A DNA stretch of 63,283 bases, filler included, from Atractiella rhizophila (GCA_021432655.1; 12 parts of 12 records of this genome joined end to end with filler, not necessarily neighbours in it), one strand, 5' to 3'; positions 5,468-54,831 are shown, counted from the first letter of the whole stretch. A program made the numbers and translations. The notes: generated by a model from the sequence alone, not told the origin.

Positions 5468-5567
5468 NNNNNNNNNNNNNNNNNNNNNNNNNNNNNNNNN
5501 NNNNNNNNNNNTTAATTAATTAANNNNNNNNNNNNNNNNNNNNNNNNNNNNNNNNNNNNNNNNNNNN
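5468..5567. other. Artificial 100-bp scaffold spacer (44N-TTAATTAATTAA-44N), first of 11
   Basis: Identical spacers lie at 5468, 11006, 16536, 22062, 27559, 33047, 38520, 43960, 49398, 54832 and 60264. The linker places stop codons in all six frames. Confidence 0.98.
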
Positions 5568-11005: not shown

Positions 11006-11105
11006 NNNNNNNNNNNNNNNNNNNNNNNNNNNNNNNNNNNNNNNNNNNNTTAATTAATTAANNNNNNNNNNNNNNNNNNNNNNNNNNNNNNNNNNNNNNN
11101 NNNNN

Positions 11106-12190
11106 GATCCATATTTCCAACTCCAGTTCCAGCCCAGATAACTTTCCAAGCACTATCATCCTCCCTGTTCCCCTTCTCCAGTCGTCGTTTCACTTCCTCC
11201 TCTCCCACATCATCCCACTCATCGATCATCTTATTCTTCAATCCTCTTCCCTCAATTCCTTCCGGCCATCCCATCGTTCCGCGCGCAATATCGAACTTCA
11301 GCGTCCTCAGCGTACTCACATGGTCGGCAGCTATGAGTGCACGCTTGGCACCTGGAGACAAGAGCGATTCGGACGCAAGACTGAACCGTGTTCCCAGGAC
11401 TATCCCGTCTGCTCCCAATGCCAACAAGGAAGCGAGATGTGCGCCGCCAACGAGACCGCCAGCAGCGAGCAGGGGACATCTTTCTTGTGTGAGAGATGAG
11501 AGGATGGAGGGTATGAGATTGAGAAGAGGTGGAGCTGAACCTGATCCGTGGCCGCCTGCTTCTATACCTGTAGTAACAGTTTGAAAAGGTTTGACATGAA
11601 ATGTGGCAAGGAAAGGTGTGGAGGACTCACCTTGAGCAATGAGCACATCCACTTTCCATTCCTCTACTGCCGTAATCGCTTCTTCCACAGAGTTAATTTG
11701 AACGAAGACCAAAACGTCTGCTCTCGCCTTCCTCGCGATCTCAATCCATCTACCAATTTGCGCTCCAAAGCTGAACCAGACGGCTTTACATTCCCTAGCA
11801 GATCTCTGAACCATCTCCTCGGCTTCATCAACAGGCATAGACTCGAGGATCCAGGCCAGAATTCCAACTCCAATTGGCAGGACGTTTGATTCTGGGAATT
11901 GCGAGCGTGCTATAGAGAGTTCCAAGGAGAGTGTCTCAATGCTTCGCACTGGATAAGAAGACTTTCATCAGTCCGCAATCAATAACGGTTGAGATGACAC
12001 AAACCTCCAATGAATCCAAAGCCACCTGAGAGCGATACCTGAGCAGCAAGCTCACCGCCAGCAGCGTACACCATAGCAGCAGAGACGAGAGGTGTCTTGA
12101 TACCTGCAAACTCACATCGGTCACTTCAGCTATGCTGTACCGGAAAAGAGACAGACCTAACAATGTGGTAAGAGGAGTGTGAATCGTCAT
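11106..12190 (-). CDS. Nitronate monooxygenase / 2-nitropropane dioxygenase family (3'-truncated)
   Basis: MTIHTPLTTLLG start. Motifs VDVLIAQG, EAGGHG, PLLAAGG, LGADGIVLGTRF and WAGTGVG. Confidence 0.9.
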
Positions 12191-13007
12191 GTCGTTCTGC
12201 ATTATACTCTAAACCTGAGCTGGTTGAACTTCGAACCGCGAGCGACTGATGGTCGTTTATTGTCATGACTTCATGCCTACTCTCTTCCGGTAGCTCATAT
12301 GTCATCATGTCAGGGCTCTTACTACTGGCCTGTTGTGCTATCTTTTCCGTAGCTCAGCGGAGACGACCGACAAGTTCCGGTAAGGCGAATCGAAGGGTTA
12401 TAGTAGCGTCTGTAGCGTTGTTGACGACCTTGTTAAAGCCGTTAGGCCTTAGTGTAAATCATGTCGAAAGATGTCAACAAGAAGTTTGAGGAGTATCATG
12501 CAGGTCACGAAGGATCCATTTGACGACTTTATCGAACCCTGGAGGGAGCACTCGTCAGAGTGGAAGGTCAAAAGCCAGTATATGCGATGTGATCGACATC
12601 CCATATAGCACTCACGCACGAGGGTTGCAACGTTGCTAACTTTTATGAAACATGAAAAGTTGGTAGTGATGTTTTCTAGTACTCAAAGAGAGCAGTCGAC
12701 GACAAGACACCTTAATTGCATGCTGCATACTATCCAATTAATCCTATTAACATCTGAGTCCTGCAATCCCAAGCATGAGCTCATATACGCCACGCTGTTA
12801 CCGTTAACGTCAATATCAAAAAAACATTTTCGAACCAGCACTGTCAATGTCCGGCGGTCGGGAATGTTTTGTTTGCCACGACGACTTTGCCTTTTATATA
12901 ACATGAAGCCACGTCCCTCGTCGCGGTAACCGAACTCTGTCCTTTCTCCTTCAAACCTCTCCTTCCTCTACAACGGTAACGTAGCACGAACTGTAGTGAA
13001 ACTCAGA

Positions 13008-14817
13008 AGTAGCGTAGCCAACCCTAACAAGGGGACTTGCGGAACCAGCCTGAGAGTAAAAGAGTTTTTCCCGTTCGTTTCGGACCCAGTACAGGGGGAG
13101 TAGGCAGAGGTAGAACTGAAGGGGTAGGAATTTGGCCCGATAGGCCCGGTGAAGGACGTAGCGGAAGAAGGGAAGTCGTATTGGGTAGTGTAGCAACCGC
13201 TAAGCTGCGTTTAGACGCAAGCGTATGTGGGAGGTAAAGCTAAAGAGAAGAAGAGGTTAACCGGGTGCACTCTAACGGACGACATGAAGGAGTAAGCAAC
13301 AGGCGGTCTAGCGTTGGGAATTCTGGTATGGGAGAGCCACTCACTAGTATTACCATTCTCGTATGACTTCTTACATTTTCTTCCTCTGTATGGTAGGACT
13401 CCCTAGCAGACCCACGCCAGCAAGGTCAGAGCGTTGAAGCTAAGGAGAGGTTAGGCCTAGAAACTCCATTCCTTTGACTAAGGACTAGGACAAGAAGTAT
13501 ACCTTTATCCTGCGAACCCTCACCTTCCACAGCCTACCTTCCAATACTTAAAACTCGACACACCACTTCCCTAGTAGCTAGCCGGTTGCCCACCGCAGTT
13601 AGTCATCAACCTTTCCCGAGACAAGTCTTCTTCACCTCAACTTCTTGGCTTTCCGCCGAAACTTCGCCAGTATCAAAACGGTAAATTCGCGATACGCGAA
13701 AACGAAGTTTACTATTAATTGACTGGACATTCTTCCTCTTTCTCGTAGTCGTGTACCTTCATCTTCAAAGCCAGTAAGGTAATCGCGACCTCGTCCATCT
13801 TTACGTCTTAGAGACGAGTACCTTCCTTCATGTGTATACCCCCGAGTAAAAGTTGCACTCTTACTTGACATTTTCGAATGCCCATTCCACCAGTTTATAA
13901 CACAAAAATTTGTAGATGGAACTGGTCTTACCTTTCCTTTTGTTTTTATAAACGAGTACGTGGCACTAAGGGGTATGCTGACTCCTAGGCGGTCAGGAAA
14001 TGAGTAAACGTAGATGCGTTTGATGTCCGCTGTTAGGGTACCACGTCATAGCTACTGCCAATGGAAGATTGCCCAAGTCCCCTTTTTTCGATGTTGTCTA
14101 CTAGTTTTTGCGTTGAAGATTGTACCAACTGTTCCTCTCGTGAGTCGCAACCGCGTAGAGACCTACTTTGTTTTTTATTGGATACCTACTATAGAGGAGA
14201 GACGGAGACCTAGGTCGTACTGCAAGGTGTGTCCTACACTGGTTCTATCATCCGTATATGTACTCCGTTATACTCTACAAACGTCTCCTACTTTCTTTAT
14301 AAGGCACTTCCACATCTCGTCACACTCCTTTGTTTCTTTTGGGTTCTCCTTTTATTTTGTAGGGGTCGGGTGTGAAACCAAAGGAGCTAACTATTCCTTC
14401 GTAGTAAAACGTGATTACTGCAAGGTTTACACTCACTTCGTCTTTAATTACAAGAAAAGAGTCGTTAACTACCTCTTAGAAGTCGACTTCAAAAGTGCGT
14501 ATAGGTATCATCGTTATTGAGTGGCTTGTTGTTTGCGAAGTCGGGTCAAGAAGTCAGGTAATCGACCTATGGTTTTTAACCTTTACTTGGTAGACACTAT
14601 CCGCCATAGAAATCCATAGCAACGCCCCAGAGATCCATGCTATTTTCAGGTTTTAGGGGACAGTATGTTATACAGTCCAAATAGCATCCGACGTCGTCGT
14701 CTTCGCGGCCACCCTCACTCCCCTTAGCACGCCCTTCATGACCCTCGACTCCTCCCCCTGTGCTTCCAAGCAACTGAGGCAACACCTTTTCCTTCCACTT
14801 GTGTTCCCTCCCTGTCC
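13008..14817 (-). CDS. Hidden spliced hypothetical gene readable only in the REVERSED, NON-complemented sequence (5'-truncated at the gap)
   Basis: Reading the + strand letters right-to-left gives an open exon 14817-14524 (...YDKPDILYDRGFWTFIVPRDP...NWAEAFVV-CG), a GTGAGT donor at 14523, and a GCTGAT branch with pyrimidine tract and CAG acceptor at 13726. A phase-matched stop-free exon 13725-13008 follows (G-SVNYHLKQKRIALKWQNYDRFK...MRVRPRRSGEQSQPMR*). Confidence 0.85.
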
Positions 14818-14981
14818 NNNNNNNNNNNNNNNNNNNNNNNNNNNNNNNNNNNNNNNNNNNNNNNNNNNNNNNNNNNNNNNNNNNNNNNNNNNNNNNNNNN
14901 NNNNNNNNNNNNNNNNNNNNNNNNNNNNNNNNNNNNNNNNNNNNNNNNNNNNNNNNNNNNNNNNNNNNNNNNNNGAACAGC

Positions 14982-15977
14982 TTACTTCTCCTTCGTGACT
15001 GTACCACGGATAAGACCGGTTCTGCGGGCTGCACACGAAGCCAACTATCAGCATCGAACAGAGGAGGGACTAAACGGAGGAAAGAGACCCACCAGCAATG
15101 AGACCTGCTTTTTGACCTGCTGAGGCGTCGCGAGCGATAGTGGAAGCGTGACCGATGTGCTATTCCACAAAACGTCCATGAGCTACGCAAAATTAAGGAT
15201 AAGAGATGCGGACCTGATGGTTACCACCACCATGAGGATGGTCGACAGGGTTCATAGCCACACCTCTAGTCTTAGGCCAGCAGTTCCTCTTCACCCTGTA
15301 CTTGTGGTATGCCCTTCCAGCCTTGAGAAGGGGCTTATCTGGCCTTCCACCACCAGCAACAATACCGACGGTAGCACGCCCGCTTGAAGAGACGGTCTTC
15401 TTAGCTCCAGAGGGGAGACGGATACGAGTCTTGCCATCGTCTCCGTGTCCAATGACAGTGGCGTAGTTCCCAGAAGTACGAGCAAGAGCCCCACGGTCTC
15501 CAACCTTCTCCTCAACATTGCAAACGATGGTTCCTTCAGGCATGATGGAGAGAGGGAGGACGTTTCCGACATTGAGTGTGGCTTTGCGTCCGCAGTACAC
15601 GAAGGAGCCGGTGCTGATGCCCTCCACGGCGATGAAGAGCTGCGTGCGAAGTTTGTAGCGGTAAGGATCACGGAAGACGACTTTTGCGAGTGGGGCTCCT
15701 CTGTATCATCCCAATCATCAATACAATTTCCCTAATGTTGAGCAGAAACGCACCGTCCGGGATCGTGGACTATCTCCTTCACCAACCCGCGAATATACCC
15801 ATTCTTCTCAGCAAAGTCGAGTGGCCTAAGCTTTGCAGCTCCCACTCGATGCTTCTGGTGGGCCTTGAAGATTCCACCTGATTTTCGTTGATTCCTTCAC
15901 ACCAACCGCCACCGCTTCAATGCCACAGCCCTCTTGCTAAAAGAGCTCTGATGTACACACCTAATAACTCGTCCCAT
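14982..15977 (-). CDS. RPL2: 60S ribosomal protein L2 (uL2/L8)
   Basis: MGRVIR start; [34 protein letters not shown]-terminus [15 protein letters not shown]. Several short introns. Confidence 0.97.
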
Positions 15978-17783
15978 GGTCCGCCCTAATACCTACAGTA
16001 ACTAATTTCCGAGAGGAGGCAGAAACGAAAGAGCCTTAATTTGTGATCAGCACAAAAACAAAAGCCCCGTGAAACTTTATTTATTGATTGTACATTTCAA
16101 ATATGCACAAGAACGGCCTCTGGCGCTCTCAGCTTGGCAGCAACCGTGCCAAACGTGTTGATACACGCATAAAGGCTTCAGCGGTTCAGCAATATGCCGC
16201 GTCTTGTCTGCGCCAGATATGCTCATGACCAAGGATCTACCCAGGAGCAATGTGAGACTGCAATTGCCTTTCTTTCCGAGGCTTGGGAACTCCGTGCCCT
16301 TCGTTGCTTTGTGTGCATAATCAAAGGTTCGCCTAGGCCATGGACCGTGTTGCGTATTAACAACTCGGAGAGTACACATCAGTTAGAGCGCAAGAAGCGG
16401 TTCCACATTCTGCACTCGAATCGAAAACTCGGATGGCGCGTCTCTCGCCCCATGTTACCGCTCTCCGTTCATATTGACTGTTCAGAGACACACTCCTACT
16501 CAGACTTCATCCATCAAATTGTGTCTCCCGCCCACNNNNNNNNNNNNNNNNNNNNNNNNNNNNNNNNNNNNNNNNNNNNTTAATTAATTAANNNNNNNNN
16601 NNNNNNNNNNNNNNNNNNNNNNNNNNNNNNNNNNNCTCTCTCATCTGATGACGCCTTGTGCCTACACTCCACACTTCGTCGTCTCCCGATCATGGTGCAG
16701 AGGACGAGTGCGATGAGGTAGAGGAATGGTGCGACTGGGCGTATGGACGTATGAGCTGAGAGTTCGGGTCGTAGAGAGACGGTGGGAGTCGAGATCGCTG
16801 AGAGGTAGATAATTGTTGAGGTGCGGAGATGGAGGCGTCGTCCGCTGACAACATGCTGGGTTCAAGAAATGGAGGATAATAAAGGACCTCTTCTCCGACG
16901 CCGTCAGGCCATATTCGCCCTTGACTCTCTATTCCACCTCCTTCTCTCTCGAAGATTGAACCTCGTACCTGTCCCAAGATGCGCTCACTCGCTCCTCCGT
17001 AAAGATCCTATCCACCTCCTCTCTGAGCGAACCGACCATCGCTTCCATCTCTACACTCACACACTCACACCTTCTACATGCTTGGGAGAGAAATAAGGAG
17101 GATATTGCGGATGTCTAAGGTTGGGAAGAACTAAGCCGGGACACGGCGCGGTAATAAAGGCTCGAGTAAAGACATTTCGATGCACATAGATCATATGTTA
17201 TCCGTGAAATGAAGGTAATACCATCCCACAGTGTGAATACGATACAGTATGAATGCTCCGCCTTCATCGCCGTTTCATTTCCTTGTGCTTTCACTACATC
17301 TACATAATTCGGCGTACTCGACGTTTATGACCGATACGAAAGGGACTGATCCGGGACGTCATAATAGAAGATCCTACTCAGTGGTATCTGCACTAGTTTA
17401 AGTGGATTTGTATGTAAAGAAATGCTGGTAGCAGTAGACAACCACCAAGTTTCAATACACGCTTGCTGCTTCACGTACAACATGCTCTGACAATACATCA
17501 CTAGCCCCACATCGTTCGTCTCGACTTTTGCGTTCGAAAACTACCCATACAGTCGTTTTACCCCCTTACAAGTTCTGAGGGCGAAAATTGTCGTGATCAT
17601 CGTGCCAACTCTAGATAGGCGCCTACACACTGATCAAGGCGCACGCTTTCTTTCGAGCACAAACTTCTCTCCGTGCTAGGTAGCCATTAGGATACAACGA
17701 GACATATCCAGGATGTCTGTCTTCCACAACCTTGCTATCTCCTCTCGGGTCATTGTAAACATTCAAACACAGGCACAGACATT

Positions 17784-45902: not shown

Positions 45903-47770
45903 NNNNNNNNNNNNNNNNNNNNNNNNNNNNNNNNNNNNNNNNNNNNNNNNNNNNNNNNNNNNNNNNNNNNNNNNNNNNNNNNNNNNNNNNNNNNNNNNNN
46001 NNNNNNNNNNNNNNNNNNNNNNNNNNNNNNNNNNNNNNNNNNNNNNNNNNNNNNNNNNNNNNNNNNNNNNNNNNNNNNNNNNNNNNNNNNNNNNNNNNNN
46101 NNNNNNNNNNNNNNNNNNNNNNNNNNNNNNNNNNNNNNNNNNNNNNNNNNNNNNNNNNNNNNNNNNNNNNNNNNNNNNNNNTGATGTGACTCTGTATACG
46201 TTTTACATGCTGCTCCACTACCTACACATGAAGTTAGACAATCTGCCTCACGTCAAATTCGTTTTAGAACGACAAGTTTGTCAAGTTCCTTCTTAAGAAC
46301 AGGTCTGCAAACGAAGTAAGAGAGTACTATATCCCGACATTCTTACTGGTTTTCGGGAAGCCTTGTCCGCTCCGAGGACAGAGCCCTTGTGAACATGCAA
46401 TCGTAGGGATGTGTACCGGTTTGTGCTGACAATGGTCTATTTGTAAGTGTAACACGGCAAGTAGGACGAACCTCACGCCCTTGGGGTTAGTAACTATGTC
46501 TGTATTACGTACTTCATCGTCAGAGATCAGAGGCAGTTCAAGTACCAAGTGTTGAAGCCATAAAAGACGTCGGCTTTCCGCGCGACGACCACACACGTAC
46601 ACCTGTGCTTCTGTTGCGCTTCTCATCGTTCTTTTCTCGTATTTGTATTATTACCTGACTTCTTATGCGTTCTTTGTGTGGACCTTACTGTTGGAAAGGG
46701 GACAAGAAGACGTTTTTTACAGTTTTATCTATGGGAAAGGATGAAGAAGCGGACAGTCCCTGGGTCCCTATAGGGGAATTTAAGCAACCAACACAACACG
46801 TGGCGCTAACTGAAAGTCCACCGATAAGTGCACGGTGTAAACGGTTGAAACATGCAGTCTAGGTCGTAACTGTCTTGGTCTTGAAGTATCGAAATAGTTG
46901 CCACAACGAACTGACTCTGGACTTCCCTTACCGTCTGCGGGCTTATCTGCCTTCCTAAAACATGACGATCTAACAAATGCTTTCAACCACGCACAGGGCT
47001 AAAGTTCTCGTAAGCCCACGTGTACGTCCGCTATCAGAAAGTCGGGACAACTACACCCACACTAGGCCAGGTACGTAGACACAGAAGACGAAGACATTAA
47101 GGGCTAGAACTGCACACGGACCTTGCCGCGCGAATTAACAATAACTAAATTACGAGTCGACATGCGATTCCATCACTCGGTTCGTTCTAACTGCGGAGAC
47201 TGACAGGGTACTCTCTGTACCAGACTTAATCCTCATAGTATAAGGCGAGTAAACCTTTGTCTTTGCTTCTAAACCACTTTGACATAAAAGTTACAGTTAT
47301 ATAGCTCACTGTGTATCTTACCTTCCGCAAGGAGAGGAAGTGTAGATTGAGCGAAGAGTATTGGTTTAACCAACCTGTGTTACGTTTTATGCGATCCCTA
47401 AAAAAACGGGTTAGGCGTTATTTGGCTGAAGGCTTAGGACTTCAAAACGTTCGACTTATGTTAACAACCGAATCGCATTTGCCGCATTAGCATTGTCCTT
47501 GCCGGTTCCTGCTTTCTTCCTCCCTGCTTGATACTCGCTACTTCGCGCAGTATGCTTCGGCCAGGGCATCCCTGTCCGACTGAGGTTAGATAAAGCGGAA
47601 AGTGGCCAAACAAGCTCTGGGTTACCCACTTAGACGAAGTGGTAATGGTCTTTTGATAACAAGTTAAATTTTATTTCATTAGAACCTACACCACGACGAG
47701 AAGGATCATACTCATTCATTGACAAAGCAAATTTTCTTCTCGTCTGTATTCAGCATAGAGAAACAAGACA

Positions 47771-51610: not shown

Positions 51611-53536
51611 CACTGCCAACTGAGTTTCAGACGTGAGGGCACTGTACACACGAAAGTAAGCAGATGGACGCACCTCTCTGCACTGGGTTTCGGCTGAGTC
51701 CAGACGCTGAGCCGTAATTTCGACCTATTGAAAGAAGCGTTCAGCGTCAATCTGCCTTTCCCATTCGCATCAGCTGCAATATGACCCGTGATTAAGACTC
51801 CTACATCTGGTCAGAGGCTTGGTTCAAGCTTGACACTAGTTGCCACAGATTGTCACTGAACGAGTGTTGATCTGTGCACGGCCGTTGAGGTTCGACAAAG
51901 TCTGAAAAGCTTCTCCCTCTTCTGTCTGCAGTTGCTTCTGCCCTGGTCGCGTTTGTTAGCATCTCCTTAAGGGAATGCATATCAATGACTTAGAGAAATA
52001 AAATATAGAATCATTTTTCTGGAGGGGTCATTTTCAGTGAACCACCTTCACCGGTGTCTTCATTCATGTCGATATTAATTTCTGCAATGTTATCGCTTTG
52101 AAAGAAATCAGAGGAGGATGAGACTCGAACCCAGGAGCTGTAGAACCAGTTTCGAAGAACTTGAGGGAATGACGACTGAGATAACGGTGCTCACCTGTTT
52201 TCTCATGATGCAACCACGTCTTTGTACCAGAGGGTTCAAATGACTTCAAAAGAATCAAAGTAGCTTAAATAAGCATTCTTCGTCCATTCCTCAATCCCCT
52301 GACTCCCTCATCAGTTGCAATAATGCGCGTTTGTCTCACTGTTCTATCTGTTTCTATCATTGTTCAGTACTGTCCAAATATTTCAAGCAGCGATTCTTCG
52401 TTGCATCATTTATAACCTATCCATTCCAACATATGCCATTCCGTCAAAGTTACCACATCTTTAACTCTATCGGCAAGTTCATAAAGTGTTCAATGATGTC
52501 TCTACGATTTTTCATCATTACACTCTTCTATATATCACTTGAATTTGTTTTGTTACTCTTCCAATTGACAAGTAAATCCTCAACGCAATCCTTTACGTTC
52601 ATATATGTTTCTGTTGTATTTTGTTTGTCGCTCTTCCCATCAAACAGCTCATTGATAAGTGAAAGGTTTTACATAACCCAAGCTGAAATCACAATGAAAT
52701 GATATAGATTAAACAGTACTATCAGACAAACAGGATGTACCAACATCAAACAGGCAAGGTTCATACAGTGAGTTGTGCTTTGGATAACTTCGTCTAATTG
52801 CAACGTTGCAGGTATACACAGGTAGATATTGGTGCTTACGGTCGTTTGTGCAAGCTGAGGATGGCGAACTTTGCTTTGTACTATAGAGCGAGGTGTGGGT
52901 TGTTGCACTTTGTAGTCGAAATAGAGGATGAAAGAAATGAATAACTAACTATTGCTTTGTTCGACTACAAAGCGCAAGACCCCGCTGAGAAAGGACGAAG
53001 CGCTCACCCTAACCGACGAGGATTTGGATAGTACGCTCTATAGACTTGGAGGAAGCAAGGGGACGGTGGGTGGGACTTAAAAAGAGGACACGTATGAAGA
53101 CTGCTCGCGAGTGAGGAGCAGCAGAACTGAGCGTGAGGCGATGGTCGACTTTGCTTGCAAGCAAAGTAAGCGCCTCACGTGCACAAACGCAACTTTCGCT
53201 TCTTTGTGCCTCACTTCACTACTTATGGTCTAGTTAATGCGTTGCAGTTAGCTCGAGACAGGCGCTGTAAGCTGGCAACAGCTGTATGCATTACAATGAC
53301 AAGGTAGTTGGCAGGTTGAGACTTACGGTGTAAGCCTACAACAGCAGTGTGCATTGCATAGACGGATAGGTTGACAGAAGCCAACTGGCGTTGTGAGGAG
53401 AGTGGATCCGTACACGGATCCACTGCGACAATGTGCGCAGTCGACATCGACAGAATGGGGCCGCCTAGCCGAAATTTTGGTCCGTGTCCAGATTTTCAAA
53501 ATTTGGCCGGACACAGGAGATTTTCAGTTGGCAGTG
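51611..53536. mobile_element. Non-autonomous or degenerate TIR DNA transposon, 1926 bp
   Basis: Perfect 13-bp TIRs CACTGCCAACTGA (51611-51623) and TCAGTTGGCAGTG (53524-53536), each flanked by TA (51609-10, 53537-38). Contains an internal decayed ORF and subterminal inverted repeats. Confidence 0.75.
52250..52682 (-). pseudogene. Stop-riddled coding relic inside the TIR element
   Basis: After a TTTCAG acceptor the frame reads AWVM*NLSLINELFDGKSDK...SSDI*KSVMMKNRRDIIEHFMNLPIELKMW*L*RNG..., with many in-frame stops. Confidence 0.55.
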
Positions 53537-54138: not shown

Positions 54139-54831
54139 ATGGCGAACTTGAACGATGAATTGNNNNNNNNNNNNNNNNNNNNNNNNNACTTACAGGTCGA
54201 TGGGCACAGGTCTGGGAGCTGTAGCCCTCAGCGACAAGGGTGTCTTCGCGTCCGCTTTTGCTGGCGTCTACTCCCCGACTGACTCTCGTCCATTGACGGA
54301 TGAGAGCACATTCTGGCTCGCTTCTGTTTCCAAGCTTCCTCTCGCACTCGTCGCCCTCATCCTCGTCGAGAAGTATAAGTTCGACATTGACAGTGTGGAG
54401 GATCTGGCTGCGTTAATTCCTGAATTCGATGCTGCGAGGGGAAAAGGCGCAGGAACGGTTTTTGGGGGTTGGGAGGAGGACGCGGAAGCTGGAAAGAAAC
54501 GGCCCATCTTGAAAGAACCGGAGAGGGGAATCACTCTGAGGCAACTGCTATTACAAACCGGAGGGTTCTGGATGCCCTTCACTTGGGAGGCAGGAGCAGA
54601 TTTGGTGAGATCACGCACTTTTATTGTGGCAAAATGTTGACGGAAGTGCAGGAAGACGCTAACGAGCCATATCTTACGTTCAAAATGCTCGATGTTCCTC
54701 GAGCTTTTGAAGCTGGCACGCAATTCCTGTGTGTCCCTGATTAGACATTGGTGGATGTAGGAATTGATGCTTCCTGGTAAATGGCTTAGGTATGGAAAGT
54801 GCTCGAACTGGGTGGCGGAATTCATCGAACG
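54139..54831 (+). CDS. Beta-lactamase-family serine hydrolase (3'-truncated; spans a small gap)
   Basis: SxxK motif FWLASVSKL; ITLRQLLLQTGG; FEAGT. TATAAAA at ~54094. Confidence 0.85.

Follow-up and report, generated by a model that had tools for sequence, protein, structure and literature searches.

A very probably mirror-written block beside an assembly gap in an Atractiella rhizophila scaffold

Does a stretch of assembled sequence that holds a long open frame only when read from right to left, without complementing, represent DNA that exists in cells? Antiparallel templated synthesis yields reverse complements and never plain reversals, and the locus analyzed here raises the question of whether a scaffold can carry a block that was turned around by data processing. 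The window, by which we mean the whole 63,283-base stretch of DNA that was analyzed, consists of 12 pieces of about 5.4 kb in order of descending length (5467, 5438, 5430, ... 5332, plus a cut final piece). They are linked by 11 identical 100-base linkers (N44-TTAATTAATTAA-N44), the usual device for stringing unplaced contigs together. The window copy of the sequence is entirely in one letter case. Piece 3 (11106-16535) is an unplaced, gapped 5.4-kb scaffold that contains the block in question (block A) and the gap at its right edge. This gap had been described as unlinkered in the first-pass annotation, and it is indeed a plain run of N, unlike the 11 linkered gaps. The features discussed below are collected in Table 1.

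Table 1. Coordinates of blocks, gaps, genes and candidate coding features in the window
Feature	Position	Strand or direction	Description
Nitronate-monooxygenase-like gene	11106-12262	-	PF03060, E=3.9e-14; 3 introns; left of block A
Ordinary native intergenic DNA	12263-12919	.	X1 and X2 contigs match the display, in two allelic forms
Block A	12920-14817	.	1898 nt; very probably DNA reversed without complement (equal to complemented without reversal); placed by word statistics, contig break at 12919 and k-mer change point
Hidden open frame	13769->13011	right to left	253-254 codons; stop TGA at 13010-13008; longest mirrored open run
Proposed intron	13726-14523	right to left	798 nt; GTGAGT at 14523, CTGAT branch-like motif, pyrimidine tract, CAG at 13726
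Proposed first exon	14816->14524	right to left	97.7-codon open stretch (293 nt); no ATG; coding status uncertain
Plain N gap, no linker	14818-14974		157 N; right edge of block A
Ribosomal protein L2/L8 type gene	14982-15960	-	PF03947, E=9.4e-46; right of gap
Plain N gap, no linker	45903-46181		279 N; left edge of block B
Block B	46182-~47697	.	Directly follows the 279-N gap; right edge interval 47686-47704
Plain N gap, no linker	54163-54187		25 N

Inverted word statistics in two blocks

We scored reversal as the log-ratio of the frequency of each word to that of its mirror image, with frequencies taken from the other pieces. Since words were counted on both strands, the score is strand-symmetric and only reversal, not strand, affects it. 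At k=4, block A gave -0.079 per base versus a control value of +0.048 +/- 0.011 (52 chunks, 1500 nt each; z=-11.3). In 500-nt windows, the 219 lying outside the segment marked in the first-pass annotation averaged +21.3 (sd 13.7) versus -31.6 for the 8 inside. Negative windows made up 7 of the 8 inside and 13 of the 219 outside; five of these 13 fall in block B and two overlap the marked segment itself. The inverted k-mer signature is coherent over 1.7 kb of block A, and the log-ratio is near 0 in its last ~200 nt (14606-14817).

The same inversion is seen in simple dinucleotide ratios. TA/AT is 1.83 in block A versus 0.67 +/- 0.09 in the control chunks (maximum 0.91, n=52), CG/GC is 1.25 versus 0.92, (AG+CT)/(GA+TC) is 1.18 versus 0.91 (maximum 1.12), and (AC+GT)/(CA+TG) is 1.43 versus 0.82 +/- 0.06 (maximum 0.95). 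All four ratios thus come close to the reciprocals of the corresponding control means, and their own reciprocals (0.55, 0.80, 0.85 and 0.70, in the same order) lie inside the control ranges or on their limits, the minima being 0.43, 0.65, 0.74 and 0.70. The excess of TAG, CTA and ACT words over GAT, ATC and TCA that had first drawn attention to the locus is reproduced: (TAG+CTA)/(GAT+ATC) is 2.93 in block A versus 0.56 elsewhere in the window, and (ACT+AGT)/(TCA+TGA) is 1.91 versus 0.73, both beyond the ranges of 35 control chunks (0.28-1.09 and 0.51-0.98, respectively). Block A is inverted and not merely odd in composition, as only reversal yields a negative image of the host statistics, whereas foreign or random DNA would score about 0.

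Block B, which adjoins the 279-N gap, shows the same pattern (k=4 log-ratio z=-9.5, TA/AT 1.49). It holds no long ORF in either the native or the mirrored reading, so the case for this block is entirely one of composition. That a second mirrored block also adjoins a plain N gap points towards a fault of a systematic kind. By the reversal score, the 25-N gap has no mirrored neighbor and the DNA adjoining it is normal, so any such fault does not strike at every gap.

Edges of block A and the flanking native genes

We searched public sequencing runs with 11106-14817 and aligned the four that it retrieved to 11106-16535 at a likeness of at least 90%. Two (X1 and X2) are DNA runs from one sample carrying the same organism label (share of words 0.37), for which contigs only were used; the other two (X3 and X4) are of a guessed kind, RNA, and gave spliced contigs on the flanking genes only. 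The X1 and X2 contigs match 11106-12919 and 14975-16535 as displayed, in two allelic forms and with few differences (0.3-0.5%, plus indels). Over 12753-12919, two allelic contigs both cease to match at 12919, beyond which each carries 3 unmatched letters, and they end 30 letters past the last variant site (12892). A run of this length would be the expected behavior of a bubble arm in a k=31 graph, and such an ending would place the point at which the true genome leaves the display at 12920, to within about two bases. On the other side, the first 1140 letters of a 2920-letter X1 contig match from 16114 to 14975, and 1780 more run leftwards to a loose end. Given the 157-N gap, about 1600 of these 1780 letters would overlap block A were the display right, and they do not match it. 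An X2 contig likewise enters the gap from 14975 with 144 further letters. Depth in X1 and X2 is 0 over block A versus roughly 180-440 in the flanks, although by our read-mapping rule lacking cover counts as no evidence. X1 and X2 are possibly the assembly's own source, in which case they are not independent support, or come from another isolate.

The k-mer change point lies at 12876 (support interval 12863-12914), close to this contig break. The first-pass annotation had put the left edge of the block near 12270, which is 650 nt off; its observation that the block joins normal DNA without Ns holds at the relocated junction, 12919/12920. The composition of the intergenic stretch between the nitronate-monooxygenase-like gene and block A is intermediate (k=4 log-ratio z=-3.5).

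Both flanking genes are native and of an ordinary eukaryotic kind, with introns. A spliced X3 contig on the left-hand gene ends at 12262 and skips 11566-11628, 11949-12004 and 12102-12154 as reported, which after adjustment to GT..AG boundaries correspond to introns at 11568-11630, 11949-12004 and 12104-12156. The L2/L8 gene shows four spliced joints in X3 and X4, and its C-terminal exon ends in a stop codon (14982-14984) that lies 8 nt from the 157-N gap. The seven RNA-supported introns across these two genes are 53-66 nt long, and all follow the pattern GTNNG...AG on the minus strand.

We also looked for further copies of the blocks. With blastn and tblastx, neither block in native or mirrored form has a paralogue or allelic copy in the 63-kb window, and 30 letters of the loose end left of 14975 are absent from the window in all four orientations at up to 5 mismatches. 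A metagenome search with an exon of the neighboring nitronate-monooxygenase-like gene returned 7 loci, of which the best, on a 1014-nt contig, shows 53% identity; when both blocks, each in both forms, were compared with these 7 loci by tblastx, there were 0 matches.

An open frame in the mirrored reading

Block A contains 10 native-frame ORFs of at least 60 aa, none of which matches Pfam at E<=0.01, and the best native-frame codon score is only 6.7-7.4, in agreement with the earlier view that the six normal frames contain no credible gene. The long frame found when the block is read from right to left scores 16.8-17.0 (0.065 per codon). None of 35 equal-size mirrored control chunks equals it in length or score: their scores peak at 7.8 by ORF scoring and 8.0 by the splice-aware model, and their open runs reach at most 169 codons. 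Across the full 58,447 nt of control DNA mirrored likewise, the longest open run is 208 codons. The codon model is small (15 training ORFs, 4461 codons) and the per-codon score is therefore supportive only, although it falls in the upper half of the leave-one-out range of these 15 real long ORFs (-0.035 to 0.079 per codon). The period-3 signal, which is unchanged by reversal, was ranked against 192 control windows and places the long-frame region at the 84th percentile, 13770-14522 at the 16th and the proposed first exon at the 62nd; by this signal, 13770-14522 looks non-coding. The mirrored frame is probably part of a real gene, which would presumably be expressed.

The first-pass annotation had joined this frame to an upstream exon in a two-exon model. 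The right-to-left landmarks that it listed (the open exon, the GTGAGT donor, the CAG acceptor and the TGA stop) are all present and phase-matched, and the two exons (293 + 718 nt) join into 337 codons with a terminal stop only. The splice model itself fares less well. The intron it requires is ~12 times longer than any of the seven RNA-supported introns, the proposed first exon scores only 2.9 (0.036 per codon) with an unremarkable period-3 signal, and a splice-aware search that allowed introns of 45-95 nt returned the long exon by itself. For these reasons, we regard the two-exon model as doubtful. The acceptor at 13726, with its CTGAT motif, pyrimidine tract and CAG, resembles native acceptors, so a nearer upstream exon that has gone unrecognized is possible. 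A further in-frame GTATGT..GAG intron, which had been suggested within the long exon, is unneeded since the frame is open anyway.

Probable origin of the apparently mirrored blocks

The inverted statistics, the contigs that cease to match at 12919, the 253-254-codon mirrored frame and the recurrence at a second gap together lead us to conclude that 12920-14817 is very probably a processing artefact, a mirror-written block rather than DNA existing in cells. This upholds the central reading of the first-pass annotation, in which data processing reversed a block without complementing it and so hid a coding frame.

The compositional evidence has a biological mimic. Repeat-induced point mutation (RIP, CpA to TpA) in fungal repeats raises TpA/ApT and lowers (CpA+TpG)/(ApC+GpT), as does a reversal, and both classical RIP indices, with thresholds of TpA/ApT >= 0.89 and a substrate index <= 1.03, flag blocks A and B (TA/AT 1.83 and 1.49; (CA+TG)/(AC+GT) 0.70 and 0.81). 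That the blocks are real DNA as displayed, in the form of a RIP-mutated repeat, is nevertheless extremely unlikely. RIP depletes G+C, whereas the G+C of the two blocks is normal (0.466 and 0.453 versus 0.425-0.523 in control chunks), and words on which RIP is neutral are inverted as well (GAT 16.9 to 5.8, TAG 9.3 to 23.2 and AAT 16.3 to 7.4 per kb). At k=3, even the words that contain none of TA, CA, TG and their reversals reach z=-2.9 and -3.0, under the control minimum. A repeat would be expected to have copies, but no second copy, native or mirrored, occurs in the 63-kb window; RIP creates stops rather than a 253-codon mirrored frame; and the reciprocals of the RIP indices are already normal.

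The contig evidence, in turn, would also be compatible with a presence/absence difference between isolates, which would leave block A unmatched in X1 and X2. The block could then be real DNA that is foreign or particular to some isolates, such as an insertion, a contaminant or an accessory segment, and that is missing from the X1/X2 isolate; these runs come from a single DNA sample that is not necessarily the assembled isolate, and their flanks differ from the display by the substitutions and indels given above. We consider this very unlikely, as foreign DNA would score about 0 or mildly positive and not as the host's negative mirror in two blocks (z=-11.3 and -9.5), both blocks have an edge exactly at an N gap, and the native frames hold neither a long ORF nor a Pfam match, whereas the mirrored reading has host-like codon usage. 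Low-quality or chimeric junk, for instance from misjoined reads, with no true counterpart in any orientation, might be expected in an unplaced, gapped 5.4-kb scaffold, and the corrected form of block A is a prediction from word statistics and the open frame. Junk would not, however, keep an inverted k-mer signature coherent along 1.7 kb, nor would its mirrored reading show splice motifs of host type and a 253-codon frame that has both the host's codon usage and a period-3 signal; this origin is extremely improbable.

Under the preferred reading of a processing artefact, a real genomic stretch of an intron-bearing, fungal-type organism would have been written into the scaffold in mirror form. 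The likeliest source would be a gap-closing or contig-extension step in which the added sequence received only half of a reverse-complement operation, given that both blocks lie between a plain N gap and a seamless join, inside multi-contig scaffolds. Such a fault could take the form of a case-sensitive complement or of an extension string assembled the wrong way round. A systematic fault, with gap-adjacent added sequence mirror-written across the assembly and perhaps across other assemblies of the same pipeline, seems to us slightly more probable than not.

Orientation errors are known among deposited sequences, where entries have been reversed only or complemented only instead of reverse-complemented. 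The present case shares with them the half-performed reverse complement, the loss of alignment and the scrambled frames; it differs in that the affected sequence is an internal scaffold block with a seamless join at one edge and an N gap at the opposite edge, and in that two such blocks fall within 63 kb. Inversion misassemblies, in which a contig is misoriented as a true reverse complement, similarly originate in scaffolding or gap closing and have their breakpoints at contig ends or gaps. A true inversion, however, keeps its k-mer statistics, ORFs and read matches, whereas here the statistics are inverted and contigs cease to match at the block edge. Among the literature matches listed, the titles and opening parts of the abstracts make no mention of mirror-written blocks in genome assemblies.

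The blocks carry no biological meaning and reveal no new biology; their use is as a quality flag and a recipe for detection. About 3.4 kb of the 63-kb window (the two blocks) is apparently mirror-written, which scrambles the six standard frames and makes at least one coding frame, of ~253 codons and probably belonging to a gene, invisible to annotation. Read mapping, gene calls, primers and comparative analysis over such blocks would fail silently. At 1.5 kb, such blocks stand 9-11 sd away from controls in TA/AT or in the k=4 reversal log-ratio, a cheap screen that could be applied to public assemblies. If the fault were systematic, many gap-adjacent kilobases would be non-existent DNA, the annotation and the protein databases derived from it would lack a set of real genes, and a strand-symmetric score of words against reversed words would find all such blocks.

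The two forms of the fault predict different repairs. A case-sensitive complement that passed over lower-case gap-filled bases, the example given in the first-pass annotation, would, if the whole scaffold was flipped, be mended by complementing the block in place; an extension string written backwards would be mended by reversing it in place. We hold the two to be about equally probable. End-overlap alignments at the junctions give scores of only 6-7, at chance level. Reversal in place opens a run of 202 codons that crosses 12919 and contains an in-frame ATG at 12903. When native chunks were joined at random 2000 times, 28% of the joins also reached this length, and the native-flank part of the run scores -0.033 per codon. 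The geometry would favor reversal in place only if the proposed first exon is real: because the L2/L8 stop lies 8 nt from the 157-N gap, complementing in place would leave little room for a promoter and start.

A probable second mirrored block

The segment at 46182-47697, directly to the right of a plain 279-N gap, appears to be a second mirror-written block, that is, a stretch whose letters are reversed without being complemented. Its k=4 reversal score, a strand-symmetric log ratio of the frequency of each word to that of the reversed word, reaches z=-9.5 against control chunks of the same window (negative values indicate mirrored sequence), with a TA/AT ratio of 1.49 and a GC content of 0.453. 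We found no long open reading frame in 46182-47697 in either the native or the mirrored reading.

For the first mirrored block (12920-14817), the first-pass annotation had proposed, reading right to left, a 798-nt intron with a GTGAGT donor at 14523 and a CAG acceptor at 13726. In that direction, at 13721-13726, the putative acceptor is directly followed by GTCAGT, and the same site is therefore also a good candidate donor (CAG|GTCAGT).

Intermediate and weakly negative scores

To the left of the first block, DNA contigs match the native intergenic stretch at 12270-12919 in its displayed form, yet it scores z=-3.5 for reversal, an intermediate value, and has a TA/AT ratio of 0.89. Many allelic differences and small indels separate two contig forms here. 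In the two public DNA runs of one sample, two contig forms occur at 12167-12919 and at 16115-16166, distinguished by SNPs and 1-4-nt indels and present at unequal depths (e.g. 123 vs 215). This points to an organism that is either dikaryotic or a heterozygous diploid, or else to a sample of mixed origin.

The reversal score is also weakly negative at 52751-53500, which has no adjoining gap. Over 52751-53250 it amounts to -17.0, compared with a mean of +21.3 across the window (sd 13.7); the segment lies within an A+T-rich stretch (GC 0.39 over 52001-53000). The low score may reflect natural variation along the sequence, or it may mark a third block of small size.

Window make-up and an open intron

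Twelve unplaced contigs or scaffolds, each ~5.4 kb long, make up the window (1-63283); they are ordered by decreasing length and joined by identical 100-base linkers, N44-TTAATTAATTAA-N44. Adjacent pieces are therefore not adjacent in the genome.

Linkers and intron
Feature	Position	Remark
Linkers	5468-5567, 11006-11105, 16536-16635 and so on	
Intron of the nitronate-monooxygenase-like gene	11568-11630	63 nt; in-frame, no stop

Because this intron is open in frame, the minus-strand stop-to-stop ORF at 11050-11964 runs through it uninterrupted, and an ORF-based annotation of the gene would take in 21 false residues.
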